Assembly (NCBI GenBank): GCA_965223855.1
Contig: CBDCXM010000008.1
Coordinates: forward strand, 672,001-736,000
Length of the DNA stretch: 64,000 nt
From: Candidatus Multivoradales bacterium
Lineage (GTDB): Bacteria; Acidobacteriota; Thermoanaerobaculia; Multivoradales; JAHEKO01
Reading direction: 5' to 3'
Under the pieces are notes generated by a model. The model saw only the letters and a program-made list of their open reading frames with translations. It made no database searches and was not told the origin of the DNA. Positions 22,492 through 54,266 of this stretch are shown piece after piece. The position numbers were made by a program, and so were the translations under genes. The first letter of the stretch is position 1; the number at the start of each line of letters is the position of its first letter.

Positions 22492-22542
22492 CTACTCGAA
22501 CCAGGGATTGCCGCCAGCGACCAGGTTGGTTCTCACCTTCAG
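22492..22542 (-). CDS. Small peptide precursor (M)KVRTNLVAG-GNPWFE, class II, CTG start
   Basis: GAAAGGGGGTG RBS 7 nt before CTG, the same spacing as the neighbouring paralog; in-frame stop just upstream. Confidence 0.75.
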   Translation of the reverse strand: MKVRTNLVAGGNPWFE

Positions 22543-22622
22543 GGCTCATCACCCCCTTTCCGAAGCATTGGGTTGAGGATGTCTACGACCGGTTCCATGC
22601 TAGGAAGTGCTAGTTGCGGTCA

Positions 22623-22673
22623 CTACTCGAACCACGGGTTCGCACCGACGACGACTTGGGTTCTCGCCTTCAC
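22623..22673 (-). CDS. Small peptide precursor MKARTQVVVG-ANPWFE, class II
   Basis: GAAGGGGGTG RBS 7 nt before GTG; paralogous to five other sORFs. Confidence 0.8.
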   Translation of the reverse strand: MKARTQVVVGANPWFE

Positions 22674-22773
22674 AGCGCACCACCCCCTTCCTTGGGTAGT
22701 TGAGAGGATTCTCGATCGCCACGCTGAGCTTCGCGTAATGCTGGTCTCTCCGAAAGCGCCGTGGAGCCTGACG

Positions 22774-22830
22774 CTACTCGAGGATGTGGGCTGTCGACTG
22801 ACCAGCCTTGACGTTGGTCTTGACCTTCAT
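22774..22830 (-). CDS. Small peptide precursor MKVKTNVKAG-QSTAHILE, class I
   Basis: AAGGAGG RBS 6 nt before ATG; family leader. Confidence 0.85.
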   Translation of the reverse strand: MKVKTNVKAGQSTAHILE

Positions 22831-22891
22831 CGTCTGCCTCCTTGCAGAGTTGAGTGGGTACGCGATCGTTGGGCGCTCCTGACAATCAGGT

Positions 22892-22919
22892 ACGCGGCGT
22901 CGACTCCCGGGTGGACTCA
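22892..22919 (-). promoter_or_regulatory. Putative promoter TGAGTC-N17-CGCGT of peptide cluster 1
   Basis: Motif match 62 nt before ATG 22830. Confidence 0.65.
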
Positions 22920-23139
22920 CGGCGCAGCCCCCCGCCTCCTGCTCACCAAGGGGCACCTGCCACCGCCAGAGGAAACTCTTCGAAGTCGGCCCGCGTCGGC
23001 ATCCTTCGAGGCTGCCGGCGTGCCAATGGGGCCCTCCGCGACTGGCGCTCTCGAGCGGTCATCTCCACACTACCCGCCCTTGCTGGGCAAGAAGCTGCGG
23101 AGACAGCAAGCCTGCGAGCAAGACAACCGAGAAAGCGGA

Positions 23140-23766
23140 CTACTCGGTTCCGGGCGGCTCGTCCGCCAGCGCCGTCAGCAGCCAGGCCTTTGCAAGACGC
23201 CAACGCCTGAAGGCGGAGGATCGCGAAAGACCAAGAACCTCACCAGCCTCGGCAATGGACAGGCCCACAAAGTAGCGCAGTTCCACCAGTCGCGCCAGGA
23301 CCGGATCGTTCTCTGCGAGCCTTTCCAGCGCGCGATCGACGTCAACGAGAATCTCCGGCTCGTAGGCTTCCAAGGCCGCTGCCGCCTCCATCGGCACTCG
23401 GCGCCATCCGTCTCCCCTCTTGCGACACGCCCGCTTACGAGCGTGATCGACGAGGACTCGACGCATGATCATGGCGGCGACGGTGTAGAAGTGAGCGCGG
23501 TTGGTCCATCTCACCGACCGCTGCCGCGACAACCGGAGGTATGCCTCGTTGACGAGAGCGGTGGGGGCCAGGGTGTGGTCCACCCGCTCCGAGCGAAGCT
23601 GGGAGGCCGCTATCCGCCGCAGTCGCCCCACCACGAGACTGAAGAGGGCGTCACGGGCGTCGAGGCTTCCCGACCTCCAGAGGTTGAGAAGCTTGGTGAT
23701 GTCCTGGCCGGCCTCCACCGGCGGAGTCTCTAGGTCTGAAGCGAGACCTTGACTCGGATGCACCAT
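23140..23766 (-). CDS. ECF sigma factor, TIGR02999-like kinase-associated type (start 23766 or 23718)
   Basis: ITKLLNLW, HTLAPTALVNEAYLRL, WTNRAHF, RRVLVDHAR..KRG, VELRYFVGLS. Confidence 0.9.
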   Translation of the reverse strand: MVHPSQGLASDLETPPVEAGQDITKLLNLWRSGSLDARDALFSLVVGRLRRIAASQLRSERVDHTLAPTALVNEAYLRLSRQRSVRWTNRAHFYTVAAMIMRRVLVDHARKRACRKRGDGWRRVPMEAAAALEAYEPEILVDVDRALERLAENDPVLARLVELRYFVGLSIAEAGEVLGLSRSSAFRRWRLAKAWLLTALADEPPGTE

Positions 23767-23875
23767 GACAAGAAAGCTAGTCGAGCCCGCTTGACCTGTC
23801 AACGAAGTGGACCGCCCTTGCCCGAGGGAACACTCGGTGGAGCACCGTCCCAAGACGCCGAAGATTCGGAGTGCC

Positions 23876-26800
23876 CTAGTCCGGCTCGAGATCCGAAAGC
23901 CTCGAATCGGCGACTCCTCGATCGAGAATCGCCCTAGCCAGAAGCCAGGCTTCGTCGCTCCTGCCCGCCCGCGCCAAAGCAAGAGCCCGAACGCGGTCAG
24001 CTTCAAGACCGGTGGCACCGCTGGTCTGCAGGAATCCGAGAGCAGATTCGGACCGACGCTCCGGGTCCGTCCATTCTGAATCGGGATCCTCCAGGTCGGT
24101 GGCCAGGATGTGGGCTGCCGCCAATTGAACCGCTAGCTCGATGGGCAAAGCTTCCACTTCCTGGCCCTCGATCACGGGGCGGAGTATTGCTGCTGCCTCC
24201 GCAGATCGACCAAGGCTCAAGTTCACTCGTGCCCAGTCGACCTTGCTCTGAACCACTTCGCCGTTGAGGTCCTCGAGAGCCGCGGATCGGATCTCCAGAG
24301 CTCTCCGCAAGAGCGGTTCAGCTTCACGACCGCGACCATCTGCGAGTCTTGCCATCCCACCCGTTCGGAGCGCATACGCCAGGTCCGGATGATCGGGTGC
24401 GGCCTTGGCCAGGACAACAGCAGCCTCTTCCGCCAGCTGTACAGCCTCCTTCCAGCGGCCTGACAAGAACTCAAGGTCTGCGATCGCTGCCCATGTCATG
24501 GCCGACCGCGGATGAGCGTGGCCGAGGAGGGAGATTCGGAGATCCAAGGCCTTCTCGAGGTTGGGGCGCGCCGCCTCGAGAAGACCCTCTTCCAGCTGAA
24601 GGGTGCCGAGGTTGTGGAGGGCAGAGGCGACTGATTCGCTTCCTACACCCAATGTGGTCTCATAAGTCCTGATCGCCCGCTGATAGAACTCGGTCGCTTC
24701 GGTGTGCCGACCCTGAAGATCGAGCAGCACGGCCAGGTTGTGAAGCTGATCCCCCAGCCGAGGGCTCTCGCCAACCTCTCTGTCGACGATCTCGAGAGAT
24801 CGCCTGAACAAGGGCTCCGCCCGATCGAGCTGACCTCGACTGGCGAAGACCTTCGCCAGATGATCGAGACCCACGGCAAGTTCGTAGCTGTCCTCGCCGA
24901 TCTTGGTTTCGAGAATCTCAACCGCTCGAGAGAGCTCTTGTTCTGCTGCACCGAACTCGCCAAGCAGCCTCAGTGACGTACCGAGTACGAGGCGCGCTCT
25001 GCCAACCAGCAGGTGGTCGTGCGGTAGGAGATCGACTCGAATCGAGACGCAGTCTTCAAAGAGGCCCTTGGCTTCCAGATACTCACCTCTTTGAACCTCG
25101 GTCTCGCCGAGCGCGAAGAGTGCATCCGCAAGTTCGAGGCTGTGTTCACCGGCAATCTGTCTTCTGGCCTCCAAGGCGCTCAGGTGCAACGCGTGGGCCT
25201 CGGCGAGGTTACCCTCTGCTGCTTCGACCCTTCCAAGGACCAACTGGAGGTCAGCGATCATGAGAGCTTCGTCGCTTCCGGACGCTTCCACCAACTGGAA
25301 GGAACGCTCGAGCTGCTCCCTGGCTTGGGCAAGGCGGCCCACGGTGCGGTCCAGCTCCGCCATCCATCGCAGCGCATCGACAAGCGCCCCTACAGAGCCG
25401 CGCTCCTCGAATGCGGCCACCGACCGGCTGAGGAAGCGTCGTGCTTCCTCGTATTCGCCCAGCCCCACGAAAGCTCGACCCAGGGCGAGCGACAGATCCG
25501 CAGCCAATTCCGCCGGCAGCTCGTCGAGTTGCGACTCGAGCTTCGATGCCCCGGCCTCTACGATCTCCTGGGCGCTCACGCCCTCTCCGAGTGGAGACAC
25601 CGGATCGGCCCGGGCGATCAGTGACACGACGTAGTCTGTCGAAGCCCGAGCACGCTTCGTCTGCGCGGCTGCCTCGTCGAGAGCCCGCGCCTTCCGCTGT
25701 ACTTCGAGGAGTAGCAGCGGGACGAAGAGCAGAACGGAGAGGGCAAGTCCGGCGACCAGCACCGAAGCGACGGGGTGGGCGCGCGCACTCCGCGAGACGA
25801 CGTAGATCAGCGAGCGACGGCGGGTGCGCAGAGGCAGACCGTTGAGGAATCTCGAGATGTCCGCGGCAAGCGCCTCCGCCGACGGGTAGCGCGCTCCAGG
25901 GGCCGGTTCTGTTGCCGCCAGCACGATGGTGTCGACGTCTCCCCTGAGCTGGCGAACGAGACGTCGTCGTCCTACCCCGCACTTCGGAAGGTCCACCGCA
26001 CTCTCGGAGGCAACGGAGTCGCTGGGTCGTGAGAGGCGGGCTTCGCCCGACCCTCGGTGCCCTCTGGCCTGCCCCGTGACCAGGTGATGTAGCAAGACAC
26101 CCAGGGAGAAGACATCGCTTGCTGTAGTTGAAGCTTCGCCTCTGAGCTGCTCTGGACTCGCATACTCCGGTGTCATCCGAGCTTCGCCCGTCTGCGTCGG
26201 CTCTACGTCGGGCTCGAGCCGCTTCGCGATGCCGAAATCGAGGAGCTTCGGACTCCCCTCGCGGGTGACGAGTACATTGCTCGGTTTGATATCGCGATGG
26301 ATTACCAGGTTCTGATGGCTGTGGTGGACAGCCCGACAGACAGGCTCGACGAGTCGTAGCCGCTCCTCGACAGTGAGGCCTTTCAACTCGCAGTAGTCAT
26401 CGATCGGTATGCCATCGACCAGTTCCATCACGAGATAGGGCCGGCCGTCGGAGAGTTCCCCGGCGGCCAACATCTTGGCGATGTGGGGGTGCTCGAGACG
26501 CCCGAGGATCTCCTGCTCGTCGAGGAAACGACGCCTGGCGCCCTCGGCCTCCAGCGGGAGGTCGAGAATCTTGATAGCTACCAGGCCATGCGCACCTCGG
26601 GCGGCGTAGACCACCCCCATGCCACCCCTGCCGATCTCACCTTCAACTTGGTAGCCCGCCACTTCGGTTGGGGCAGCCTTCGCCGTGGCCGCCTCTTCGG
26701 CCGAGCCCTCGAGCCACCCGACTGCTCTCTCCGCTGTGCTGACCAGAGCGCGAACTTCGGCGAGGAGCGCGACATCGTCAGCACACTGGTCAACCAGGAA

Positions 26801-26881
26801 CTCATCTCTCTCCGATGCCGGTAGGTCCAGCGCCGCCTGGAAAAGCTCCTCGAGCTGACGCCAACTGCTGTCGAGAGGCAC
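23876..26881 (-). CDS. Membrane Hanks-type Ser/Thr kinase with extracytoplasmic TPR array
   Basis: GRGGMGVVY, VAIK, HRDIKPSN, DFG, TPEYASPE; one TM segment; long TPR-like helical repeats. Confidence 0.92.
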   Translation of the reverse strand: MPLDSSWRQLEELFQAALDLPASERDEFLVDQCADDVALLAEVRALVSTAERAVGWLEGSAEEAATAKAAPTEVAGYQVEGEIGRGGMGVVYAARGAHGLVAIKILDLPLEAEGARRRFLDEQEILGRLEHPHIAKMLAAGELSDGRPYLVMELVDGIPIDDYCELKGLTVEERLRLVEPVCRAVHHSHQNLVIHRDIKPSNVLVTREGSPKLLDFGIAKRLEPDVEPTQTGEARMTPEYASPEQLRGEASTTASDVFSLGVLLHHLVTGQARGHRGSGEARLSRPSDSVASESAVDLPKCGVGRRRLVRQLRGDVDTIVLAATEPAPGARYPSAEALAADISRFLNGLPLRTRRRSLIYVVSRSARAHPVASVLVAGLALSVLLFVPLLLLEVQRKARALDEAAAQTKRARASTDYVVSLIARADPVSPLGEGVSAQEIVEAGASKLESQLDELPAELAADLSLALGRAFVGLGEYEEARRFLSRSVAAFEERGSVGALVDALRWMAELDRTVGRLAQAREQLERSFQLVEASGSDEALMIADLQLVLGRVEAAEGNLAEAHALHLSALEARRQIAGEHSLELADALFALGETEVQRGEYLEAKGLFEDCVSIRVDLLPHDHLLVGRARLVLGTSLRLLGEFGAAEQELSRAVEILETKIGEDSYELAVGLDHLAKVFASRGQLDRAEPLFRRSLEIVDREVGESPRLGDQLHNLAVLLDLQGRHTEATEFYQRAIRTYETTLGVGSESVASALHNLGTLQLEEGLLEAARPNLEKALDLRISLLGHAHPRSAMTWAAIADLEFLSGRWKEAVQLAEEAAVVLAKAAPDHPDLAYALRTGGMARLADGRGREAEPLLRRALEIRSAALEDLNGEVVQSKVDWARVNLSLGRSAEAAAILRPVIEGQEVEALPIELAVQLAAAHILATDLEDPDSEWTDPERRSESALGFLQTSGATGLEADRVRALALARAGRSDEAWLLARAILDRGVADSRLSDLEPD

Positions 26882-27370
26882 GAACTAGCTCCCGCCCGTT
26901 GAGGATCTGGTGCCGACACACAGGGACGGGTGGAAGACTCGCAGCCTCACCTGCTTCACACGCAGGAGGACGGCGACCGCAGGATCGGGTACCGAAAGAT
27001 CAGCCCAGGGGCGTTTCTCGGACATCAGTTTCGATCCGGTCATGGCCATAATGCTGGTTCTGAACGCGGAGCCGGGGCCATCAACTGTACCCCCTCCAAT
27101 CGTTCTCCCTACTCCAGTAAGCGCGAAGTGGGGAGTTTCGGCTCGGCCTGCGACTGGGCTGGAGGTCTTCAGGCAGCAGAATGTGACGGAGCTGCGCCGT
27201 CCGCCTCATTTCGACCGGTTCTGCGTCCCTGGGCCGCCGCCTGGTGGCGGACACCCTCAAACTCCCGGGGACGGCCAGGCTGGCTCGACAGCGAGGCGAG
27301 GCTCCTGGCCGCTCGAAGTCGGGTTCTTCTACCCGATGATCAGCTGCGCAGGGCTAGCCCCTTCTGTCAC

Positions 27371-27397
27371 GAGTCATCCGCAGCCTCGAGGCCGCGT
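27371..27397 (+). promoter_or_regulatory. Putative promoter GAGTC-N17-CGCGT of peptide cluster 2
   Basis: Motif match 62 nt before ATG 27459; downstream TGTCGGGAGTGCCCA resembles cluster 1 TGTCAGGAGCGCCCA. Confidence 0.65.
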
Positions 27398-27458
27398 CCT
27401 TGGTGTCGGGAGTGCCCAGCCCTCGATCTGAAGTTCTACCTGTGAAGGGAGGCCGTTA

Positions 27459-27515
27459 ATGAGAGTCAGAACCAACCTGCCGGCTGGCGAGTCCACAGTC
27501 GCCATCCTCGGCTAG
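27459..27515 (+). CDS. Small peptide precursor MRVRTNLPAG-ESTVAILG, class I
   Basis: AAGGGAGG RBS 6 nt before ATG; family leader. Confidence 0.8.
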   Translation: MRVRTNLPAGESTVAILG

Positions 27516-27603
27516 AACCAACGCCTCGGCGCTCTCGAGGTCGAGGCCTCGAAGAGAACTCAAACCCTCCCCAGCCCTCCATCCATAGAAAGGAGGTGAG
27601 ATC

Positions 27604-27654
27604 GTGAAGGCAAGAACCAACGTAGTCGCCGGCGCCAGTCCATGGCTTGAGTAG
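27604..27654 (+). CDS. Small peptide precursor MKARTNVVAG-ASPWLE, class II
   Basis: AAAGGAGGTG RBS before GTG; family leader. Confidence 0.85.
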   Translation: MKARTNVVAGASPWLE

Positions 27655-27890
27655 GTGCCGGTCGAAACTCACTCCGGAGTGGATTGACGGGCTGGGCCTC
27701 CTGACGCGCGATCCAATTAGTCGCTGGAGCAGGTTCACGCGGCCCCCGGGGTCCCTCCCTAGTCCAGAGCCAAACACGGCCGCTCGTCGTGATCCTTCCT
27801 CAACTCCCAAGACAAGAAGAAGGGGGCTCGCGGGCAGTCGTCCGCAAGCCACGTCGCGGTTGGCGGCCCGGACGGGCAGAGCCCCTGACC

Positions 27891-27918
27891 TGAGTTCCTC
27901 CCAGTCTCTCTCGCGCGT
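27891..27918 (+). promoter_or_regulatory. Putative promoter TGAGTT-N17-CGCGT
   Basis: Motif match 74 nt before ATG 27992. Confidence 0.6.
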
Positions 27919-27991
27919 CCTCGATCGCATGCATTGCGCGCCAAACGGACGCTCGAATCGCCCAAGCAAGAGATACAGAAGGAGCTTTCCA

Positions 27992-28975
27992 ATGATCCTG
28001 CCAGCCAGGAAAGTCGCCAGTCTGGTCGCCGTAGCGGCCCTTGCAAGCATCACCAGTCTCGGTGCCGACTCTGAGCCGCGAGCCGAGACCGTCGTCCTCT
28101 TCGATCCTCAAGCGCTGGAAACGCCCGAGAGCATCGTCTTCGACAGCCTGGACAACGCCTACATCACACTCGCATTGACCGGCCAGGTAGTGAGAGTCTC
28201 CCAGGATGGTCGCCTGACCCTTGTCACCGAGCTGCCCATCGGGGCTCCCTGTGGTTCGGTACCGACCCTGGCTGCCGGGTTGGCCGTCGATGACAACGAT
28301 CGGCTTTTCGCAGCCGTCTCGGCATGCGACCCTGCGAACTCCGGCATCTGGGAGATCGATACCGGAACCGGCGAACACTGGCTGGTTGCCGTCGCCCCTT
28401 CCTCCGTCGCGATTCTCAACGGCCTGGACGTTCACGGCGACTATCTCTACGCCGCAGACTCCCTGGCAGGCCTCGTGTGGAGAGTGTCCACCTCGGGCGG
28501 TTCGTTCGAGGTCTGGGTAGACGACCCGCTCCTCAAGATCAGGCCGGGTTCGCCCTTTCCGGGTCCCAACGGGCTCCAGTACTACAGAGGTAGCGTCTAC
28601 GTGGCGAACTCGTCGACAGGCGCCATCGTGAGGCTTCCTATTGGGAATCACGGATCTTCGGGAGAAGCCACCGTTCACGTGTCGGCATTTCCTCTAGGCT
28701 GCGACGAGTTCACGTTCGATGTCCTGGGTCGCATCTACTGCGCCACCGGACCCTTCAACAAGGTGCTGCGCCTGACCCCGGGCGATGTCCCATCGACCGT
28801 TCTCGATGCCGGTGACCTGCTCGACGTCCCCACCTCGGTGGCTTTCGGACGACGCGGGCGGAACAAGAGGTTTCTCTACATCGCCAACGCCGCCTTCCCG
28901 TTCGCCACTCAGCAGTTTCGGCCCAGCCTGATGAGGCTGCCCGTGGACATCCCGGGGGATCCTCGGGAGTACTGA
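27992..28975 (+). CDS. Secreted SMP-30/gluconolactonase-like beta-propeller
   Basis: AAGGAG RBS; signal peptide; PESI, NGL, GPNGL, DEFTFD blade motifs. Confidence 0.8.
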   Translation: MILPARKVASLVAVAALASITSLGADSEPRAETVVLFDPQALETPESIVFDSLDNAYITLALTGQVVRVSQDGRLTLVTELPIGAPCGSVPTLAAGLAVDDNDRLFAAVSACDPANSGIWEIDTGTGEHWLVAVAPSSVAILNGLDVHGDYLYAADSLAGLVWRVSTSGGSFEVWVDDPLLKIRPGSPFPGPNGLQYYRGSVYVANSSTGAIVRLPIGNHGSSGEATVHVSAFPLGCDEFTFDVLGRIYCATGPFNKVLRLTPGDVPSTVLDAGDLLDVPTSVAFGRRGRNKRFLYIANAAFPFATQQFRPSLMRLPVDIPGDPREY

Positions 28976-29070
28976 ATGTTCGATTCACTCGATCTTGGTC
29001 CGTCTGGGCCGTGTCGGAAGTCATGGCATCTCCCTTGGCTTCGCAGGCGGCCTGAAGAGTTCCGTCACTG

Positions 29071-30735: not shown

Positions 30736-30794
30736 TGGCTCTCATCGCTCGAGTGCGCAGTGCGGCGATGAACCGGACAACGCGGCAGGTCGGC

Positions 30795-30822
30795 TGAGTC
30801 AAGAGTCTGGGCGTTCTCGCGT
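30795..30822 (+). promoter_or_regulatory. Putative promoter TGAGTC-N17-CGCGT
   Basis: Motif match upstream of 30966. Confidence 0.6.
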
Positions 30823-30965
30823 TCTCAACAACGGACCGGCGGGCCTGCGGCCTCCGCCGACCTGCAACCGCATCTTCTGCTCGGCCACGTGGATTCGTCG
30901 TTTCAAGTGGTCGGGAATCAAACTCTTACTTGGAAGGGACCGACAACACCTTGAAGACGACAAGC

Positions 30966-32075: not shown

Positions 32076-32296
32076 TCGGAGAGACTGGCTGGGCGGTCTC
32101 AAGAGCTTGGTTCTGTCGTCGAGGTGCCAAGCCGAGCCACATCTGACGGTCCTGCTGACGTCATGACCCGAAACTCTTCGAGGACCGAACCCATCGTGCA
32201 GCACGCACGTCTGTAACCGCCAGAACCGACCAACAGTACGCGGCTCATTTTGGATCGCCGACGGGACTACACCATCTCCCTCTCAGAGGAGTGCCC

Positions 32297-42270: not shown

Positions 42271-42444
42271 ATGTTCGGGCTCCACAGTCGCGGCATCGAC
42301 GGCCTCTGCCAGGGAGAAGCGGTCCTCTAGCAGGACCGGGCTTTTGGCTTGCCCCGTTGAGCGCGCGCGGAGTTCCTCTTTCCTCACCCACTCGACGCTC
42401 GAGCGATCCCCTACGGGGCTCTTGAAGTGAGCGCCCGGCGCCAA

Positions 42445-42472
42445 TGAGCCACTTGCAACAGCGTTCGCGCGC
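42445..42472 (+). promoter_or_regulatory. Putative promoter TGAGCC-N17-CGCGC
   Basis: Motif match 95 nt before ATG 42567. Confidence 0.55.
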
Positions 42473-42566
42473 TCTGGATAGAGCGAGATCCCGGGGCCAG
42501 AACCAATTGGGAAGCAGCCCAGATGGCCTCTTGAGCACGAAAGACTTCCCTCGCAGAAAGGTCAGA

Positions 42567-43004
42567 ATGAGAAGCATAGCAATCAAAAGAAGCCTTCGTT
42601 TCGGAATTATTCTTCTTGCTCTCACGGTGGCCCCCGCACCTGCCGGGGCGGCTGATTCGAATCCGTGCGCAGACCCGAACCACGATGACGACACCGATGC
42701 CCCCCACCTTTGCGCGCTGCCAGGGACTTGCCTTCCCGGGGACATCGTAGGCGATCGCTTCGGTCATTCCGGCGTTGGCGTCTCAGGCCTGACCAGAATC
42801 AGATGCGACCCAGGAGGCTGTCGGGGGCGTATTCAATGTCAGACTTGCGCTGGGACGACGTACCATCGCTATACCCCTCTGAAGAACTACGTGATCTGCA
42901 CGTCCGAAGCGGGCAATCAGTCAACCTGCAAGGCGAGCGACTATCCGGTATCTTGGAATGCTGGTGTAACGACTGTTGCCTGCTACGAAGAAGTTTGTCC
43001 CTAG
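42567..43004 (+). CDS. Small secreted Cys-rich protein (11 Cys), paralog 2
   Basis: GAAAGG RBS; signal peptide; same Cys scaffold as 41866-42270. Confidence 0.8.
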   Translation: MRSIAIKRSLRFGIILLALTVAPAPAGAADSNPCADPNHDDDTDAPHLCALPGTCLPGDIVGDRFGHSGVGVSGLTRIRCDPGGCRGRIQCQTCAGTTYHRYTPLKNYVICTSEAGNQSTCKASDYPVSWNAGVTTVACYEEVCP

Positions 43005-43795: not shown

Positions 43796-43820
43796 ATTCA
43801 CCCGGAAGCTCTCTTCGGGA
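43796..43820 (+). repeat. Third REP-like hairpin unit
   Basis: ATTCACCCGGAAGCTCTCTTCGGGA, related to the 41361 and 41400 copies. Confidence 0.55.
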
Positions 43821-44044: not shown

Positions 44045-44542
44045 CTATTGAGGAGGCATCGCTGGACCGCAACGATAGGTTACCTGGCTGTAGTTGGCCC
44101 GCTGACACGAAACCTCCTGCCCTTCGGCATAGGCCTCCACACCCTCGCAGGTGATTGGAGATGCGTCGTTGGGGCAGTTGGCCCAAGCCTTGGCTGCCGG
44201 TTCAGAACCTCCGTCTGTCCACGTCATCCATTGGTCGCTCCACCGTCTGCCGAAGCAAGCCGTCAACGTTGGTGCGTCAGCAAGATTCACGGAGTGACAG
44301 GGCTCGTCTGTAGGGTTGTCGACCATCCCGCCCTCCTCGTCGATGCCAGGGTTGTCGGGGCCGGTTCGCGGATGGCTCCGTGCTCCGGCGTGGGGCATCC
44401 AATGAGGGCATTCGTCGTCGAAAACGGGCTCGACTTGCGCTTCAAGACTCAACCCGCAGAGAAGGGCTGCTAGTAGCGCAAGCGCCGCGGCCCAGAGTAG
44501 CCGGTGTCGGCCGAGATCAGGTGAGTTGGCATCCTGCTTCAC
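44045..44542 (-). CDS. Small secreted Cys-containing protein
   Basis: AAAGGAG RBS before GTG; signal peptide ending LEA-Q; 7 Cys in the mature part. Confidence 0.7.
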   Translation of the reverse strand: MKQDANSPDLGRHRLLWAAALALLAALLCGLSLEAQVEPVFDDECPHWMPHAGARSHPRTGPDNPGIDEEGGMVDNPTDEPCHSVNLADAPTLTACFGRRWSDQWMTWTDGGSEPAAKAWANCPNDASPITCEGVEAYAEGQEVSCQRANYSQVTYRCGPAMPPQ

Positions 44543-44598
44543 GGGAACTCCTTTGGACGGGGTGACGGTCGAGACTCGCTCGGGGTGCTACATGAAGA

Positions 44599-44626
44599 CC
44601 GCGAGGGAACTGCGTTCGTTGACTCA
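44599..44626 (-). promoter_or_regulatory. Putative promoter TGAGTC-N17-CGCGG
   Basis: Motif match 57 nt before GTG 44542. Confidence 0.6.
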
Positions 44627-44719
44627 GCAGGCTTGGAGCGAGTCAGACTCCGGAACTGTTCAGGCGCTTGCAGTTCCCGCCAGCAATCCAAGTGAGATCG
44701 ATCTCCCTTGGAAGGAGTT

Positions 44720-44808
44720 GGAGCTGCGTCGAACGGCGCGCTCCGGGAGCCAGTCTGGGCGCTGAAAGCAGCCAAATCGCAGGCTCCGTGGTCCTGGCTG
44801 GCGCCCGC
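44720..44808 (+). repeat. ~90-bp imperfect direct repeat, copy 2
   Basis: Aligns with 37185-37275. Confidence 0.8.
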
Positions 44809-44929
44809 CTCTTCGGCGCCCGGCGCGCGCTCAGACGTCGGGGATCGTCTGTCGCCGGACGCTCCCCAAGATCCTCCATGCGCCTGCGCTCCTCTTCCAC
44901 TTGCCGGGAGCCTCTGGCGCTCGGCGTGA

Positions 44930-45958: not shown

Positions 45959-46095
45959 AGCTCACAGGCAAATGCTGCGTACGTTTTCGGCTCCGCAGCC
46001 AAGGCGACATCCATTCTGGTTGAGGGACCTGGACGAGGGACTCGCGACCGGCGAAGTCGTTGGCCAGCGGAGCTCAGCTGTCACCGTTCGGCAGC

Positions 46096-46147
46096 AAAAC
46101 TCCGCCCCGCCCTTGCTGCCCTCAAGGGGCCGCTCGGACGGGGCGGA
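46096..46147 (-). terminator. Possible terminator or attenuator after the peptide gene
   Basis: TCCGCCCCG/CGGGGCGGA stem followed by GTTTT on the minus strand. Confidence 0.4.
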
Positions 46148-46203
46148 CAGGCCCATCTGTTCTTGGCAGGAAGATCGCTGATGAAGCTCTCTTCCTTGTG
46201 CTC

Positions 46204-46260
46204 TCACTCCAGGATCGGCATCAGCGATTGACCTGCCTTGACCTTGGTCTTGACCTTCAA
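46204..46260 (-). CDS. Small peptide precursor MKVKTKVKAG-QSLMPILE, class I
   Basis: AAGGAGGT RBS 6 nt before TTG; directly downstream of the exporter operon. Confidence 0.85.
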   Translation of the reverse strand: MKVKTKVKAGQSLMPILE

Positions 46261-46435
46261 GCTGCCACCTCCTTCCTTCGTCTGCGGTTCGATTTCGGCT
46301 ACCCCGGGAGAGTCGGGGCGTCAGCTTGTCCGGCAACCCTCCTGAAGGTCGCGCAGATTGCAGCCTACTTGCCTCACGCGAAAACCGATTTGCTTTCGCT
46401 TCGATCCGTAAGCTCGACGGCTGATCCGGCATCGA

Positions 46436-48538: not shown

Positions 48539-51081
48539 GCTCCGCCACGACCGAGGTTCCCTCGCGCGACGTCACGAGAAGGGGCAGCTTCCAACCTGTC
48601 GATGACGCCCGCCCGCGTGATGGCACCGTGCTCGAGAAGAACGAACCGGTCGAACAGCTTCGCCTCTTCCCTGTCGTGAGTTACGCATACGATCGTGGCT
48701 GCTCGCCATGCCTCGAGGCAAGCGCGCAGGAGTTCGTTTCGCCTTCGAAGGTCAAGACCTCGGAAGGCCTCGTCGAACAGAACGAGATCAGGCCTGGGGT
48801 GCAGGAGGCCGCGACCGAGCCGTAGCCGCTGCCCCTCTCCCCCGGAGAGCCACTCGCCTCGCTCGCCCGCTCGCCTCTCCAGTCCTCCGCCACGACCTGC
48901 AACCGAGTCCAACAAGTCGGCGGTGCACAGTGCTCGAACGAGGCCGACACCAGCCTGAGCGAATCCGTATCGCAAGTTGCGCAGCAGGCTCTGATCCCAG
49001 ATCTCCACGTCAGGCGCAACCCAAACCGTTCTGTGGTGGCTCGACTCGTCCGGAGAAGGCGGTCGGCCGTCGATCCTCACTCTTCCGCCGGTGGGTTGAC
49101 TCAGTCCCAGCAGAATCCTGATCAAGCTTGACTTGCCGGCACCCGAAGGTCCCAGAAGCGCGACGTGCTCACCGGGAGCAACATCGAGGCTGACACCCCT
49201 CAGCACGTCAACCCCACCGAGAGTCAGCTCTACTGAGTCGAGTTCGATCGTGGGAGCCCCTTGCTTGGGCCTGCGCGAATCAGTCCGGCTCCTGGCGGGC
49301 TCCCTCTGCCCAAGAAGCTCGAGTATGCGATGCGCTTGAAGTTCCAACGAGGGATAGTCACCGGACAGGATCACACCGAGGATGTGTCCGTGCATGAAGA
49401 TGGACAAACCCCAGTAGGCGAGGAGCAGCGCCTGGCTGGACGCACCTCGGGCTGAGAGGTGAGTAACAACGAGAGCCATGATGCATCCGAGTACGACGAC
49501 GTGCATCGTGGTCTCCAACAGCGACACTGCCGCTGTCTTCTGGCGAACCCGCTCTCCCCAGCGTCGAAGAGCTCTCTCATGCTCCCCTCGCACGGTAGCG
49601 CTCGCCCCATGTGCCTCGATCGCATGGCGACCGACAAGAGCGTCGAAGTAGATCCGCGCAAGGCTCTGTCTGGATGACTGCACCCGCCGTTCACGGTCCC
49701 GGACGCGCGGCAACGCGAGCACGGGCAAGCCGAGTCCCGCCACCACTGCGCCAGTAACCGCGGCCAGCCCCCCCGGCTCGATCATGGCCACTCCGAAGGC
49801 CGCCACCACAAGTTCGATGCTCGAGCGGAGACCAGCGTCGAAGAACATCGGCACCCCCCGAAGGCGGAAGAGGGTTGCGAATCGCTCGGAAAGGTCGGAG
49901 GGAAGGCGCGTGCTGAAGAACTCGGGCTGGAGACGTGGAAGCTGCCGGAACAAGGCCAACCTGAGGCGAACCTCGAACTCCGTGGCCCAGCTCAGCAACG
50001 CCTTCGCCTGGTGATACTCCAGGAGTCCGACGACACACAAGAAGGCGCTGAGCATCCCGGCGAAGAAGGCTCGGGCGCCCGGACTCTCGAGGGGGAGGTC
50101 GATGAGACTGCGGAAGAGCAGCGGCTCCAAGGCTGCGCAAACGGCGAGCAGGCAGGCGCCGGAAGCCGCCAGCCATGGCCAACGACACCCCTCAACTGAA
50201 TGCTGAAAGAGCTCAGACCAGACCGAGGGGCGATGGTGAGAATCAGCCCGGGGATGCGTGCCGGCGGTTCGTGCGTCAAGGGGGTGACCGGTCAGCCCTC
50301 GGGGAGCGACGTGGAGCACAACGGCTCCTCTCAGTACCAGGTCATCGGGAGACGCCGCCGGCCTGACCTGGAAGAGTTCCGGGGGCACGGCCTGGGGGCA
50401 AGCTCGCTCCTTCATGAACTCCTCGAAGAGGCGCGAAGCCCTCCACCCAGGAGGCAGTACTCCGTCTGACCGAAGCCTCTCGATCAGGCGTAGGACCGCC
50501 TCGACCTCGGCGGCCTCTCGCCAATCTCTCTGCCGGACCTCGGTCCATCTCGCTTCGAAGGCTCGCCAAGGCACACCAAGCTCCTCGCACCGAGTCCTCA
50601 GCGGATCAAGAAAATCCTCGGAGCCCACCCAGTCGAGCCAATCCCTGATCAAAACCTCTTGAGAGTGGACATAGAGTTCGTCTCTCAAGGTCCGAGCAGT
50701 CGTCCAGCGTCTTCCCCAGGCAGGATCCATGACCTGAAATCGCCCTAGGTGACATCTCCACAGAACCACGAAGTGAGTTGCCTCGTCCGGTGTCCTGGTC
50801 ACTACGATGCAGGGCAGGAAGAGATCCGGCCGCGCCAAGAGGTGCTCGATGGGCACGACCCTCTGCTCTGCGCGGAAACCGAGCGAGGTCAGGAGGTCCT
50901 CGAGCATGTCGATCGAGGTACCGTCGAGCCCCACCCCTGAACGCGCTCTGAGTTCCTCGTAGTTGGCCGACAGACCGAATCCCCTGACCAACGCCTGCAA
51001 GGCGGCAGGGCCACAGTCCATCGCTGAGGCCTGGAGTACCGTCGGAACGATCAGCCTGCGCCGGTCACGAACTCTAGCCAA
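48493..51081 (-). CDS. Peptidase C39-containing ABC transporter (PCAT)
   Basis: LQASAMDCGPAAL, HFVVL, MDPAWG (Cys-His-Asp); GPSGAGKS, LSGGE, LFDE. Confidence 0.92.
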   Translation of the reverse strand: MARVRDRRRLIVPTVLQASAMDCGPAALQALVRGFGLSANYEELRARSGVGLDGTSIDMLEDLLTSLGFRAEQRVVPIEHLLARPDLFLPCIVVTRTPDEATHFVVLWRCHLGRFQVMDPAWGRRWTTARTLRDELYVHSQEVLIRDWLDWVGSEDFLDPLRTRCEELGVPWRAFEARWTEVRQRDWREAAEVEAVLRLIERLRSDGVLPPGWRASRLFEEFMKERACPQAVPPELFQVRPAASPDDLVLRGAVVLHVAPRGLTGHPLDARTAGTHPRADSHHRPSVWSELFQHSVEGCRWPWLAASGACLLAVCAALEPLLFRSLIDLPLESPGARAFFAGMLSAFLCVVGLLEYHQAKALLSWATEFEVRLRLALFRQLPRLQPEFFSTRLPSDLSERFATLFRLRGVPMFFDAGLRSSIELVVAAFGVAMIEPGGLAAVTGAVVAGLGLPVLALPRVRDRERRVQSSRQSLARIYFDALVGRHAIEAHGASATVRGEHERALRRWGERVRQKTAAVSLLETTMHVVVLGCIMALVVTHLSARGASSQALLLAYWGLSIFMHGHILGVILSGDYPSLELQAHRILELLGQREPARSRTDSRRPKQGAPTIELDSVELTLGGVDVLRGVSLDVAPGEHVALLGPSGAGKSSLIRILLGLSQPTGGRVRIDGRPPSPDESSHHRTVWVAPDVEIWDQSLLRNLRYGFAQAGVGLVRALCTADLLDSVAGRGGGLERRAGERGEWLSGGEGQRLRLGRGLLHPRPDLVLFDEAFRGLDLRRRNELLRACLEAWRAATIVCVTHDREEAKLFDRFVLLEHGAITRAGVIDRLEAAPSRDVARGNLGRGGAWRHLEIREGRLDGP

Positions 51082-52216
51082 GAGCCGCTCTAGCCTTTTC
51101 GACCTGCCGTATTGCGACCTGAAGAGGAGTCACTCGATCTACCTCGATGTCCACCAGACACGGCAGGCCCGCCTCCAACGGAGCGTCTCCATCATCCAGC
51201 AAACGAAGTACCACCTGAACGAGTCCCTCTACTTCCTCGCTACCGACACTCGCCACCTCGGCCGGCATTCTGCGGCGTCCGTTCACAGCATGCTCCAGCC
51301 GAACTACGGCCGGCTGACCAGCTCTGACACGACCTACCGCTCCAGGCGGGGCCAACCTCGCTCGCACGACCAGCGGGCCTTCGGGAAGCAAGCTCGCCAG
51401 TCGCTCACCCTTCGAGACGAGTCCACCGACCTCGGTCTCCGTGACACTCGCCACGACACCGGAGCGAGGAGACCGCACTCTCAGGTCCCGGACCGTGCGC
51501 TCCGCCAGAGACACGGCTTCCTCAGCCGCCTGCAAGGCGGCCTCCAGGACGACCATCTCCGACTCGATCTGCTCGAGTGCGGAAGCTTCATCCAGAGCGA
51601 TCCGCTCTCCAGACCGAGTTCCTCCTGTCAGGACCTCCCTCGCAGCCGCCAGGGCACTCTTCCTCGTGACGACCTCGCTGCGAAGCGCATCGACTACCGC
51701 AGCGCTCACGATCCCCTCCTCGTGGAGGCCCTGTTCCCGATCGAGCTCTGCCTCGGCACGCCTCAGAGCCTCGGCCGACGTGTCTCTCGCAGCAGCCAAC
51801 TGGCGCAACAGTGCAGCCTGCTCGGCCGCGCTCACCGACAGTCTCGCGACGGCCAGGGCGCGGGCCCGGTCTCGCTGGCGCAGCTCGGCCCTTACCGACG
51901 TGAGCGTGGCACGTGCCTGAGCAAGGATCAGGTCCTGCGACGGGCTCTCCAGAACGGCGACCAGCTCGCCCGGACCTAGCCGGTCGCCCGGAGCCACCTC
52001 GAGGCTGGAAAGAGCGCTCTCCATTCGGGCCGAGATCTGCAGAAAGCCAACCTCGGACTCGACACGCGCAACCTCCGAAGTTACATAGACAGGCACGGAA
52101 GCCACCGCAAACCAGACCAACCAGCCCAAGATCAGACTCGAGGGCACGATCACGTTGCTGGCTCGCCTGCGACACAGATCCACCAGGACCGCAAGAGTTC
52201 TCGGAAAAACCGCCAT
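51074..52216 (-). CDS. HlyD-family membrane fusion protein
   Basis: N-terminal TM; lipoyl half-motifs VAPGDRL/VRSPRSGVV flanking a coiled coil. Confidence 0.88.
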   Translation of the reverse strand: MAVFPRTLAVLVDLCRRRASNVIVPSSLILGWLVWFAVASVPVYVTSEVARVESEVGFLQISARMESALSSLEVAPGDRLGPGELVAVLESPSQDLILAQARATLTSVRAELRQRDRARALAVARLSVSAAEQAALLRQLAAARDTSAEALRRAEAELDREQGLHEEGIVSAAVVDALRSEVVTRKSALAAAREVLTGGTRSGERIALDEASALEQIESEMVVLEAALQAAEEAVSLAERTVRDLRVRSPRSGVVASVTETEVGGLVSKGERLASLLPEGPLVVRARLAPPGAVGRVRAGQPAVVRLEHAVNGRRRMPAEVASVGSEEVEGLVQVVLRLLDDGDAPLEAGLPCLVDIEVDRVTPLQVAIRQVEKARAALG

Positions 52217-52316
52217 GAGGGTCCGACCGCTGCTCAACTTGCTCACTGTCTCAAGGTCAGGTTCAAACCAAGGAGTTCGAAGACCCCGCCAGGTCACAAG
52301 GCCGAGAAGCGACCCT

Positions 52317-52344
52317 CACCGCCAGGCGCTACTTATCTGGCTCA
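52317..52344 (-). promoter_or_regulatory. Partial motif match TGAGCC-N17-CGGTG before the exporter operon
   Basis: Upstream element and spacing match; only CG is conserved in the downstream element. Confidence 0.4.
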
Positions 52345-52666
52345 CTCGGCTTCCTGCCGCTCCACTCCGCTAGGGTCTCGAATCGTCGGCGACGCAGATC
52401 CCAATCGGCCCAGCATGCATCTCATCTGGCGCAGCATGGAACTCAACCAACGGCAGCCGCGCGTTCTCGATAGGAGGAACGCGTCTTTCGGTGAAGATCA
52501 AGCTCACACCACGGCAACGACCGAGGCCGGCCACAGCAGGCCGTACGGTGTTGGCCACAAGCAGGCTCATACTCAGAAGGTATGAACTCATACTTTTCAA
52601 GGTCTTGGCGTATCGACCTGGTGCGCCTACACTGCCCTTCCCCCGATCGACCTGCGTCGGCTCAAG

Positions 52667-53278
52667 ATGACTGCTCAAGCCTCTTCAAATCAATCCACCG
52701 TCAACACGGAGTCGGAAGGCACCGTCACCCTCCTCCTTGGCGCCTGGTCGCGAAGAGAGCCGGGAGCGCTCGACGATCTGTTCTCACACGTGTTCTCCCG
52801 CCTGCAGCGCATAGCGACCGGGCATCTAAGAAACGAAGGTCTGGGCCAAGGAATGGAGGCTCGAGACCTCGTGAACGAGTCGTACCTCAAGGTCGTCCGC
52901 CAAGGCCCGGTCGCTTGGCGCAACCGAGCCCACTTCTACACCATCGTCTCGATGATCATGCGGAGAATTCTGGTGGACCACGCGCGGAAGCGCCACGCAG
53001 AGAAGCGGGGAGGAGGCTGGCAGCGGGTACCACTCGATCAGGCCTGCCAAGCTCTCGAGGGCGACAGGGCCAGCCTTGTCGACATCGATCGGGCTCTGAA
53101 GAAGCTCTCGGTCACGGACCCCGAACTAGCGCGCGTGGTCAATCTCAGGGTCTTTGGTGGCTTTTCTGTCGAAGAGACAGCGAAGATCCTTGGCTGCTCC
53201 CGAGCCACACTCGGGAGGAGGTGGCGTCTCGCAAAGGACAGCCTGGCAGATGCACTCGGAAGAAGACAGACCGACTGA
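52667..53278 (+). CDS. ECF sigma factor, TIGR02999-like, with atypical region 2.2 (EARD)
   Basis: VTLLLGAW, WRNRAHF, RRILVDHARKRHAEKRGG, LRVFGGFS. Confidence 0.88.
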   Translation: MTAQASSNQSTVNTESEGTVTLLLGAWSRREPGALDDLFSHVFSRLQRIATGHLRNEGLGQGMEARDLVNESYLKVVRQGPVAWRNRAHFYTIVSMIMRRILVDHARKRHAEKRGGGWQRVPLDQACQALEGDRASLVDIDRALKKLSVTDPELARVVNLRVFGGFSVEETAKILGCSRATLGRRWRLAKDSLADALGRRQTD

Positions 53279-54266
53279 TCTGGCTCTCGAATCAGTTCTC
53301 GACAGTCTACTCAGATGCCCCGCCAACGAGCGGGAAGCGGAGCTTCAGGCCTGCAACCTGGGAGCTGGCGGACAGGACTATCTCCGACTCCTGACGACCT
53401 CGTCCGAGGTCGCAATGCAACGCGTCTCTGCGCAGTTGTCTCCTCGCTCGGTCCCAGCAGAAGTAGCCGGCTACGCCATCGGCCGAAGACTGGGTGGTGG
53501 CGGCCTGGCGACCGTCTATGAGGCCGAGGCGCCGGGGAAGCTTCCGAGGGTCGTGGCAGTCAAGGTCATGAGGCCTTCGCTCCCGTCACACCTGGCCGAG
53601 CGGTTGCTCCGCCATGAGGCATTCGTCCTCCGCCATCTTGCACATCGATCGATACCTCGCTTCTACGGCCGGGAGAAATCCGGACAAGGCTCATGCTCGC
53701 TGCTGATGCAACACATCGACGGCACGCCACTGCTCGAGGTCTGCAGGAGTCAAACCCCGTCCCTTGATCAACGGATTGGCCTGGTGCGGCAGCTTTGCGA
53801 TGTTGTTCAGCACGTCCACGATGCCGGTTTCGTTCACTGCGACGTCAAACCCGAGAACATTCTGATCTCAGAGGCGGGTCGCCCCTATCTGGTCGATTTC
53901 GGGTCAGCACGCAAGACACGTCAGAGCCCAGCACTCCCTGTCACCGCGACACCTGGCTACGCATCTCCGGAACTTCTTCGGCACCAGCCGGTAGGACCCC
54001 AAGCCGACGTGTACGGCCTGGGCTCTCTACTTCACAGTCTGTGCTTTCCCCTAGCTCTCGACCGTCCCGCCTGCTTGCTGCGTAGCCAAGATGGGGATCG
54101 GGATCCGGACAACCAAAAGATCTCTCTAGTCACTGAGCTCTCTCGCATTGTTCGCCGGACCCTGCGACTCCGGCCGGAGGATCGGTACTCCAGCGCCGCC
54201 GAACTGGCTGAGGACTTGGACGAACTCGAGAGGCTAGGATGTCCCGCGAGTTCAGGCACTCGGTAG
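53250..54266 (+). CDS. Hanks-type Ser/Thr kinase, catalytic domain only
   Basis: GGGGLATVY, VAVK, HCDVKPEN, DFG, TPGYASPE; no TM or TPR region. Confidence 0.8.
   Translation: MHSEEDRPTDLALESVLDSLLRCPANEREAELQACNLGAGGQDYLRLLTTSSEVAMQRVSAQLSPRSVPAEVAGYAIGRRLGGGGLATVYEAEAPGKLPRVVAVKVMRPSLPSHLAERLLRHEAFVLRHLAHRSIPRFYGREKSGQGSCSLLMQHIDGTPLLEVCRSQTPSLDQRIGLVRQLCDVVQHVHDAGFVHCDVKPENILISEAGRPYLVDFGSARKTRQSPALPVTATPGYASPELLRHQPVGPQADVYGLGSLLHSLCFPLALDRPACLLRSQDGDRDPDNQKISLVTELSRIVRRTLRLRPEDRYSSAAELAEDLDELERLGCPASSGTR

Follow-up and report, generated by a model that had tools for sequence, protein, structure and literature searches.

Mini-peptide genes with a conserved ten-residue leader beside a C39 exporter and ECF sigma/kinase pairs in Candidatus Multivoradales: a possible pheromone family

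Six short genes and the family to which they belong

The stretch of DNA analysed here, called the window, comprises 64,000 nt from Candidatus Multivoradales bacterium (GCA_965223855.1, contig CBDCXM010000008.1, positions 672,001-736,000), whose genome measures 4.52 Mb with a GC content of ~63%. Six short open reading frames (sORFs, s1 to s6) in this window encode peptides of 16 or 18 residues that appear to consist of a leader and a core, and they lie beside genes for a C39-type peptide exporter and for sigma factor/kinase pairs. They had been picked out in an initial annotation made from the letters of the window, and we found all six at the coordinates and with the translations that it gave (Table 1). 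Its further description held as well: each sORF has a good ribosome-binding site (GGAGG, GGGGG or AAGGAGG, located 6-9 nt upstream), 6/6 peptides have an invariant Thr5 and an invariant Gly10, and s3 begins with a non-standard codon, CTG. Pfam and NCBIfam searches identified the flanking genes as it had named them, namely those for a tetratricopeptide repeat (TPR) kinase and a TIGR02999 extracytoplasmic function (ECF) sigma factor, a HlyD/C39-ABC/ABC group (ABC, ATP-binding cassette), and a second sigma factor with its kinase. On the minus strand the gene order is kinase, sigma 1, s1, s2, s3. The exporter cluster lies ~19 kb further along and holds HlyD, C39-ABC, the second ABC gene, s6 and a CPBP protease gene, all on the minus strand; the protease had not figured in the initial annotation.

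Table 1. Coordinates of the sORFs and neighbouring features within the window (leader and predicted core separated by a hyphen)
Feature	Coordinates	Strand	Start codon or family match	Product and remarks
s1	22830-22774	-	ATG start	MKVKTNVKAGQSTAHILE = MKVKTNVKAG-QSTAHILE, 18 aa; first small gene downstream of sigma 1
s2	22673-22623	-	GTG start	KARTQVVVGANPWFE = (M)KARTQVVVG-ANPWFE, 16 aa; diverged leader (V8, V9)
s3	22542-22492	-	CTG at start position	KVRTNLVAGGNPWFE = (L/M)KVRTNLVAG-GNPWFE, 16 aa
s4	27459-27515	+	ATG start	MRVRTNLPAGESTVAILG = MRVRTNLPAG-ESTVAILG, 18 aa; divergent from kinase gene
s5	27604-27654	+	GTG start	KARTNVVAGASPWLE = (M)KARTNVVAG-ASPWLE, 16 aa; with s4, divergently upstream of kinase gene
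s6	46260-46204	-	TTG start	KVKTKVKAGQSLMPILE = (M)KVKTKVKAG-QSLMPILE, 18 aa; 175 nt after second ABC gene
Membrane Hanks-type Ser/Thr kinase with TPR	26881-23876	-	Pfam Pkinase 3.6e-41, TPR_12 1.8e-47	1001 aa
ECF sigma 1, TIGR02999 type	23742-23140	-	NCBIfam 194.6 bits (cut-off 126.15)	Start codon uncertain
HlyD-type periplasmic adaptor	52297-51074	-	Pfam HlyD_3 1.9e-11	
Peptidase-containing ABC exporter	51081-48493	-	Pfam Peptidase_C39 3.4e-18	C39, membrane domain and ATPase
Second ABC exporter subunit	48538-46436	-	Pfam ABC_tran; best NCBIfam rows below their cut-offs	No peptidase domain
CPBP/Rce1-like intramembrane protease	45958-44930	-	Pfam Rce1-like 1.7e-17	Directly after s6
ECF sigma 2, TIGR02999 type	52667-53278	+	NCBIfam 181.8 bits (cut-off 126.15)	Divergent from exporter operon
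Short Ser/Thr kinase	53154-54266	+	Pfam Pkinase 1.1e-33; only kinase-type families matched	Start codon uncertain because the frame overlaps the end of the sigma 2 gene
Small Cys-rich protein	42444-43004	+	No Pfam family	N-terminal hydrophobic segment
Small Cys-rich protein	44045-44542	-	No Pfam family	N-terminal hydrophobic segment

A hidden Markov model (HMM) of the six peptides, run on the own genome of the window, returned the six sORFs at 31-42 bits; the next match, part of a 672-residue frame, reached 17 bits. In other genera the same HMM picked up short frames that share the leader. We also built a leader HMM from relatives only (94 distinct leaders, window rows excluded) and scored it against the 183,202 short-ORF starts of the same genome. 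Here s1 (27.6 bits), s6 (23.1 bits), s4 (19.2 bits) and s3 (16.6 bits) took ranks 1-4 and s5 took rank 7 (12.6 bits), the match ranking between s3 and s5 being an 11-residue frame without a Shine-Dalgarno (SD) site; s2 was absent from this list. Neither HMM revealed a further member-like sORF in the own genome. These data confirm that the six sORFs are real, beyond chance. To judge from their sequences, s2, s3 and s5 are more diverged copies. The core of s2 resembles the cores ANPWLDGD and DNPWFD of relatives, and that of s4 recurs unchanged in a relative (MRVKTQAKAGESTVAILG in L060; L and G numbers are our handles for loci and genomes). A CTG start is found in 3/133 members of the family described below, and s3 may be a rare-start gene, or a weakly translated or decaying copy. 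Just upstream of its CTG stand two in-frame TGA codons.

When a 20-row peptide alignment was run as an HMM on 300 genomes of the same order (E <= 0.05), matches were obtained in 54/300 genomes, or 24/89 by genus; an even sample of the phylum gave 13/401. We fetched 74 loci around HMM matches, scored every ORF of 11-100 residues with the leader HMM and counted as members those with at least 15 bits. This yielded 133 members in the 74 loci and the window, the six of the window included, and bears out the conservation across genomes on which the initial annotation had made its reading depend. Members start with ATG in 124/133 cases, have a median length of 18 aa (118/133 are no longer than 21 aa), and 151/157 rows listed carry an SD-like site. 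The codons of Thr5 are ACC 83, ACG 21, ACA 9 and ACT 6, and those of Gly10 are GGC 76, GGT 25, GGA 23 and GGG 8. The conserved residues are written with all synonymous codons and so bear the stamp of selection on the peptide and not on the DNA.

The leader of the family reads M-K-(V/I)-K-T-x-(V/L)-K-A-G at positions 1-10 and the cores that follow it, of 5-10 residues, differ by class. Ala occupies position 9 in 121 of the 133 members, Val in 10 and Gly in 1, Gly occupies position 10 in 132/133, and the window leaders end in A-G (5/6) or V-G (1/6). Two core classes are represented in the window and shared across genera: QS(T/V/I)xxI(L/V)E, which includes s1, s4 and s6, and xNPW(F/L)(D/E), which includes s2, s3 and s5. 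Relatives have in addition the classes GFAWxD, AFHWIDD, GV(L/I)xGD, GIT(L/V)TGAD, GTPLPA and ARxQIIExG, and a further class of 35 residues with a CGCG motif. A C-terminal Asp or Glu is present in 80/133 members.

Tandem arrays in relatives reach 7 copies with varied cores, and some precursors contain more than one unit: three units lie in one precursor with VK(A/S)GG before each (L107:9981-10163), and two leader-plus-core units are fused in another (L093:9968-10150). Two long forms (L058:10276-10422 and L085:10310-10480) have a long spacer and end in K-T-G followed by QAV(S/A)AILE. The repetition of a K-x-G junction inside multi-unit precursors predicts a cut at this point, with the short C-terminal piece as the functional product. 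Three precursors of ~60 residues with an unrelated N-terminus (L160, L168 and L169, in G504, G010 and G505) end in IA(I/V)LE, like the QSTAxILE class, and share the promoter described below; that of G505 lies between a sigma gene of the peptide-linked clade, also described below, and the exporter. NCBIfam, which we take to include a model of double-glycine leaders, gave no family at E <= 1 when s1, s4 and s6 were submitted in extended form, as peptides of 23-24 residues, and for 10 longer relatives it gave a single chance-level row (E 0.34); Pfam returned nothing meaningful. Taken together, these comparisons support the view that the sORFs belong to one gene family that is conserved and in which each product is laid out as leader plus core.

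Exporter, kinase and promoter associations

In 31/64 loci (30/51 genomes) family members have exporter genes within 6 kb, with a C39 domain in 22 loci. The own genome (G000) has a single C39 match, the one in the window. Of five well-assembled relatives, G020, G022, G505 and G546 likewise have one C39 domain each, and G603 has two matches, a strong one and a weak one. In 5/6 of these genomes, G000 included, the domain is 1-18 kb from a family cluster (by the sORF HMM; the exception is G505). Among the 44 other genomes of the window's taxonomic family, 10 have both sORF and C39, 2 have only one of them and 32 have neither. C39 occurs in 230/300 genomes of the order, and being so common there it does not discriminate at that level; the pattern within the window's own family does. 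The association with C39 exporters that had been proposed for checking is thus seen both by position and in the family-level pattern.

When the window C39 domain is set against PCAT1 (4RY2), the positions of the catalytic Gln, Cys, His and Asp-Pro line up. The sORF-linked C39 domains (G000, G020, G022, G505, G546, G599, G600, G603 and G539) match Pfam Peptidase_C39 at E 1e-19 to 1e-24, and most other C39 domains of the order do so at 1e-30 to 1e-38; these lower scores suggest a distinct exporter subfamily, perhaps adapted to a short leader. The C39-ABC protein of the window is our candidate for both leader peptidase and exporter, and the sORFs are probably translated into leader-bearing peptides that this protein cleaves and exports.

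We clustered 515 neighbour ORFs within 6 kb of family genes in 66 loci. The only recurrent neighbours were exporter, kinase, sigma, TPR-CHAT and HD-domain genes, and no radical-SAM, YcaO, lanthionine or ATP-grasp enzymes recurred among them. The initial annotation had named a constant association with modifying enzymes as the mark of an already described class of peptides that are ribosomally made and then post-translationally modified (RiPPs), and no such association was found. Assignment to the lasso, ATP-grasp or radical-SAM peptides was rejected, there being no such enzymes nearby.

The window TPR kinase has its kinase domain at residues 77-272 and a single transmembrane segment at 374-392, after which come ~600 residues of TPR repeats. 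Since the repeats follow the only membrane segment, they are expected on the periplasmic side, which makes the TPR kinase a candidate receptor. Relatives' TPR kinases also have one membrane segment and then ~500-600 residues of TPR repeats. Such relatives lie within 6 kb of family members in 13/64 loci, at a median distance of 139 nt, and ECF sigma genes in 9/64; the predicted co-occurrence with TPR kinases and TIGR02999 sigmas was therefore found, repeatedly right beside the sORFs. The orders peptide-sigma-kinase (L023) and sigma-kinase-peptide (L076, L086, L087 and L101) both occur, and L027 and L029 are one-strand clusters that hold HlyD and the exporter too. L076, L086, L087 and L101 belong to one taxonomic family; in each, a GITxTGAD gene with its promoter comes directly after the kinase, and arrays of GV(L/I)xGD genes stand after the exporter genes, converging on the exporter. 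When the window kinase itself served as query, 5 loci were found, the best in an 'Acidobacteria bacterium' metagenome-assembled genome at 37% identity. An FxSxx-COOH system was considered and rejected: the TPR region of the kinase scores 101.8 bits against NF040586, whose cut-off is 300, and the score reflects the repeats only.

The own genome encodes 7 TIGR02999 sigmas in 4.5 Mb, 2 of which flank the sORFs. Both exceed the TIGR02999 cut-off and both genes adjoin a Hanks-type kinase gene. According to excerpts of PMC8999054 and PMC13147305, phospho-activated ECF43 sigmas have a region 2.2 without the acidic DAED-type motif and with a phosphorylatable Thr (STTA/QTTA). Region 2.2 of sigma 1 reads HTLAPTALVNEAYL (APTA), with no acidic motif and the Thr kept. 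Beside arrays of the QS..I.E class in six loci (L057, L058, L085, L064, L065 and L027) we found a different module, consisting of an HD_5 phosphohydrolase together with TPR-CHAT (caspase-like) proteins, one or two per locus, which is present instead of the kinase or in addition to it and may be a second read-out or processing module.

In a k-mer analysis GCGTTA was enriched 28x over background upstream of the sORFs. The full motif of the relatives is TGATCA-N17-CGCGTTA, its second block preceded by a stretch rich in T, a shape that fits an ECF promoter rather than a sigma-70 promoter. A loose pattern gave 26 matches in the 1.15 Mb of fetched loci, 21 of them 22-252 nt upstream of a same-strand family sORF; a two-block matrix placed 21/21 sites before sORFs, having been trained on such sites. 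The strict pattern TGATC-N14-TT-NN-YGCGTTA had 46 matches in 28/300 genomes and its reversed control had 0. Downstream of the 46 lie 31 leader-type sORFs, 3 of the long (~60 aa) precursors ending in IA(I/V)LE, 3 Cys-rich secreted small proteins (L157-L159), 3 other signal-peptide proteins (L161, L164 and L167) and 1 ECF sigma gene (L163); 5 cases are unclear.

In a tree of 52 TIGR02999 sequences (two rows duplicate the same genes) the sORF-adjacent ECFs of relatives form one clade with support 97/97, and an HMM of this clade scores at least 300 bits in 21/300 genomes. Across the 300 genomes, 19 have both the promoter and the clade ECF, 2 the ECF only, 9 the motif only and 270 neither; two of the nine genomes with the motif only are explained by a draft assembly or by lower-scoring adjacent sigmas. 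Promoter sites often share a contig with the clade sigma gene, at a distance of 3-4 kb. Although related genomes are not independent, the pattern recurs in three taxonomic families. These correlations suggest that in relatives the clade sigma acts at this promoter and thereby drives the peptide genes. The earlier proposal that the sigma factor transcribes the peptide genes thus agrees with the data from relatives, where an ECF-type promoter co-occurs with one sigma clade, and found no counterpart in the own genome, which has neither the promoter nor a sigma of that clade.

What the peptides may do

The reading that we favour, though tentatively, is that the six genes encode secreted, probably unmodified mini-peptide precursors, and that the peptides are ligands of the TPR kinase and close a pheromone loop through the sigma factor. 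The leader M-K-(V/A)-(K/R)-T-x-(V/L)-x-(A/V)-G would be cut after Gly10 by the C39 domain of the own genome's only peptidase-containing ABC exporter. The freed cores, hexapeptides of the form (A/G)(N/S)PW(F/L)E and octapeptides of the form (Q/E)S(T/L)xxIL(E/G), would be pumped out by the C39-ABC protein, acting with the second ABC subunit, with the HlyD adaptor and with an outer-membrane channel encoded at an unlinked site. Beyond the inner membrane, the Ser/Thr kinase whose gene lies among theirs would sense them with its periplasmic TPR domain and would phosphorylate the adjacent ECF43-type sigma on the Thr of its region-2.2 motif; the activated sigma would then drive target genes, the peptide genes included, giving a quorum-like loop. 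Cleavage, export, TPR binding, phosphorylation and feedback are steps that we infer, as is the promoter step in the own genome. We prefer a pheromone function because the layout resembles that of a signal gene beside its receptor gene, because the conserved core classes are ligand-like and because the peptides are too small to be plausible toxins. With greater reserve, we suggest that a cell-to-cell signalling family of two-membrane bacteria, probably of Acidobacteriota, may exist in which unmodified pheromones of 5-10 residues are exported by C39-ABC/HlyD systems and sensed by periplasmic TPR kinases that activate ECF sigmas by phosphorylation.

A number of observations weigh against these proposals, several of them concerning regulation in the own genome. 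The best score of the relatives' promoter matrix is 10.0 in the window and 14.2 in the own genome, against at least 29.7 for the training sites, and the strict pattern has 0 matches in the own genome. None of its 7 TIGR02999 sigmas belongs to the peptide-linked clade, and none matches the clade HMM at E <= 1e-66; in the tree, sigma 1 belongs to a distant group, at the end of a long branch, and sigma 2 also falls outside the clade. A two-block motif is shared by at most 3/6 of the window upstream regions, a result equalled in 11/20 shuffles. With neither promoter nor clade in the own genome, the regulatory loop proposed here rests on position (5/6 genes flank the kinase/sigma pair) and on analogy with relatives. 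In the relatives themselves the promoter does not precede sigma, kinase or exporter genes in the 74 fetched loci, and order-wide only 1/46 sites precedes an ECF sigma gene (L163), so that the link between sigma and promoter is correlative only; the promoter stands almost exclusively before peptide genes.

The same upstream regions were inspected in other ways. An alignment of the six regions showed only the SD sites to be shared. By eye, both s1 and s4 have GAGTC(C/A)-N16-CGCGT(A/C) ~60 nt upstream, which we do not treat as a finding. Between 22300 and 27900, a sigma-70 promoter scan gave 0 sites and a terminator-like scan gave 4 sites against 2.7 expected.

Other points that weigh on the same side concern the signalling proteins. 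Region 2.2 of sigma 2 reads MEARDLVNESYL (EARD) and is acidic, and the sigmas of one relative family also have acidic residues at the phospho-site motif (EARD and ETHD across sigma 2 and these). The second kinase (53154-54266) has no match to TPR or any other sensor-domain family in Pfam. The TPR-CHAT proteins have neither membrane segment nor signal peptide and are thus expected to be cytoplasmic, a misfit with periplasmic sensing. In 25/64 loci none of the linked genes lies within 6 kb. Four other genomes of the window's genus (G001-G004, 77-97% complete) have no family sORF, C39 domain, promoter motif or clade ECF; this patchiness makes gain by transfer or repeated loss possible. The loci were chosen because of their matches, and related genomes are not independent of one another.

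The leader itself departs from the usual double-glycine type. The usual leader motifs are GG, GS and GA according to excerpts of PMC10986499, and the shortest substrate reported as cleaved in excerpts of PMC6363468 has 13 leader residues. Excerpts of these two papers and of PMC7018657 also state in general terms that peptidase-containing ABC transporters (PCATs) export pheromones. A conserved leader and a variable core are encoded beside a C39-ABC exporter with catalytic Cys and His, as in such systems; set against the excerpts' leaders of at least ~13 residues ending in GG, GA or GS, those of the window have 10 residues and end in A-G or V-G. Of the earlier interpretation as a whole, the family, the leader-core layout and the linkage to exporter and sigma/kinase genes stood; the lack of the relatives' promoter and sigma clade in the own genome, the acidic sigma 2 and the second kinase without a sensor domain did not conform to it.

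Among the alternatives, a serious if rather unlikely one is that the peptides are exported outputs only, with an antagonistic, metal-binding or surface-active role, and that the ECF and kinase respond to some other TPR-sensed cue with no feedback. It would account for the promoter data, in which the peptide genes figure only as targets of an ECF-type promoter that also precedes the Cys-rich secreted proteins and other signal-peptide proteins of relatives, for the large tandem arrays with varied cores, which resemble bacteriocin or natural-product loci, and for the 25/64 loci far from any candidate receptor. The CPBP protease gene after s6 points the same way, the CPBP family including bacteriocin immunity proteins. 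However, unmodified peptides of 5-8 residues are very small for antimicrobials, and the conservation of core classes across genera and families (QSTAGILE, QSTAHILE and QSTTGILE) suits a ligand better than an arms-race toxin. The adjacency of the promoter-bearing GITxTGAD class to the kinase, and of another class to the exporter, also mirrors the layout of signals encoded next to their receptors.

We regard it as improbable that the sORFs are precursors of RiPPs whose tailoring enzymes are unlinked in the genome. A conserved leader with a hypervariable core, multi-core precursors, association with a C39 exporter, the CGCG motif of one class and the Trp in many cores are all features that such precursors would share, but among linked genes, to which our search was directed, no tailoring enzyme recurs, there is little space in a leader of 10 residues for a recognition element, and no precursor family of NCBIfam or Pfam was matched. 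Quite improbable, too, is an action inside the cell, either as regulators of the kinase, the TPR-CHAT proteins or the exporter, or as cis-acting leader peptides. The cytoplasmic nature predicted for the TPR-CHAT neighbours would suit such a role, as would orphan copies just upstream of a co-directional gene (e.g. in L061, 97 nt ahead of a gene for an EamA transporter); stalling or attenuation peptides would nevertheless be expected to show the reverse of the conserved N-terminus and variable C-terminus seen here, the arrays and multi-core forms point to released units, and the exporter link is strong by position and phyletic pattern. That the sORFs are unexpressed chance frames or remnants, as the CTG of s3, the diverged and poorly scoring leaders of s2 and s5 and the missing promoter in the own genome might suggest, is very improbable given 133 homologues with SD sites and synonymous variation at conserved residues, and given that four of the six are the top four of all short-ORF starts in the genome.

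Other features of the window lie around these genes. The genes between the two sORF clusters encode various secreted enzymes as well as proteins that match no family, and we noted there two small Cys-rich proteins with N-terminal hydrophobic segments (Table 1). By analogy with the Cys-rich secreted small proteins that follow the peptide promoter in relatives, these could be co-regulated effectors. The CPBP/Rce1-like protease had no tblastn match in any of the 74 relatives' loci; after s6 it may serve in peptide processing or in immunity. In the intergenic region between HlyD and sigma 2 we observed by eye TGGAAC-N17-CGCGTTC (52437-52482, plus strand), which has the shape of an ECF promoter ~200 nt upstream of sigma 2 and overlaps an inverted repeat, GCGTTC...GAACGC (52461-52466/52477-52482).

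Peptide pheromones are textbook knowledge for Gram-positive bacteria; to our knowledge almost none is established in two-membrane bacteria, and we are likewise aware of few cues for the many Ser/Thr kinases that are paired with ECF sigmas. Both C39 exporters that handle leader peptides and ECF43 sigmas paired with Hanks kinases are known kinds. In the published literature that we searched, no paper connects ECF/Ser-Thr-kinase pairs with either short peptides or a C39 exporter, and the peptide family, its 10-residue A-G leader and its coupling to sigma/kinase pairs are, within that literature, undescribed and new. The same applies to the dedicated promoter, in a comparison that stops short of the predicted ECF43 promoter motifs of PMC7826278. 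If the pheromone proposal is true, the peptides would be the first natural ligand class for kinase-coupled ECF43 sigmas, and genome annotation would have overlooked an entire tier of signalling genes, each with fewer than 20 codons. Should they prove to be outputs rather than signals, the family would still be an undescribed class of exported mini-peptides under ECF control. In either case it demonstrates that a conserved family can be made up of genes of 15-20 codons, too short for the cut-off of any gene caller, and it offers testable candidates: peptides of 6 and 8 residues, a defined exporter, a defined TPR domain and the relatives' promoter as a read-out.

Relation to known systems

One of the closest parallels in overall design is with the double-glycine pheromone loops of Gram-positive bacteria, such as ComC/ComAB/ComDE and plantaricin PlnA-D. 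In both cases there is a small precursor with a cleavable leader (here predicted) and a C39-ABC exporter, the signal gene lies beside genes for a membrane kinase and a transcription factor, and the targets of the factor include the peptide gene (here according to the promoter data from relatives). In contrast to those loops, the candidate receptor of the window is a Hanks-type Ser/Thr kinase with TPR repeats rather than a histidine kinase, and the regulator is an ECF sigma rather than a response regulator. The organism has two membranes, a HlyD adaptor is encoded in its exporter operon, the leader comprises just 10 residues and ends in A-G, and the cores have 5-10 residues.

EcfP/PknT of Vibrio parahaemolyticus and EcfK/PknS of Xanthomonas citri are ECF43 sigmas activated by Hanks kinases (excerpts of PMC8999054 and PMC13147305). 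As in these pairs, a TIGR02999-type sigma gene of the window lies next to that of a transmembrane Ser/Thr kinase, and sigma 1 lacks the acidic motif and keeps its Thr; excerpts of the same papers place periplasmic TPR repeats on PknS as well. The cues that they describe are polymyxin stress and amoeba predation, and those excerpts describe no peptide ligand or exporter, whereas the window neighbourhood has both peptide genes and a peptide exporter; its sigma 2, moreover, is acidic at the motif.

The NHLP/Nif11 export systems (TIGR03794, TIGR03796 and TIGR03797) share with the window the layout of HlyD, C39-ABC and a second ABC protein, and a leader that ends in a small residue and Gly. The three window exporter proteins score far below the cut-offs of these models (156.6 against 853.3, 107.2 against 709.4 and 42.4 against 156.2 bits). 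NHLP/Nif11 leaders are long and protein-like, unlike those of the window with their 10 residues, and no lanthionine synthetase or other maturase is encoded near the window genes.

The RRNPP receptors of Firmicutes (Rap, NprR, PlcR, PrgX and Rgg/ComR) are cytoplasmic and bind peptides that have been re-imported. Short, unmodified linear peptides as the proposed signals and a TPR-type repeat domain as the proposed binding module are common to these systems and to our proposal. Unlike the RRNPP receptors, the TPR repeats of the window follow the membrane segment of a kinase and are expected outside the inner membrane; no Opp-type importer recurs among the 515 neighbour ORFs of the 66 loci, so that these do not have the make-up of RRNPP systems.

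HetC of Nostoc is a PCAT-like exporter for which excerpts of PMC10986499 give no known substrate and no leader-bearing gene nearby, in an organism with the small regulatory peptides PatS and HetN. There, as here, a C39-type ABC exporter of a two-membrane bacterium is suspected of exporting very short regulatory peptides. Unlike those of HetC, the candidate substrates in the window are encoded adjacent to the exporter and form a family.

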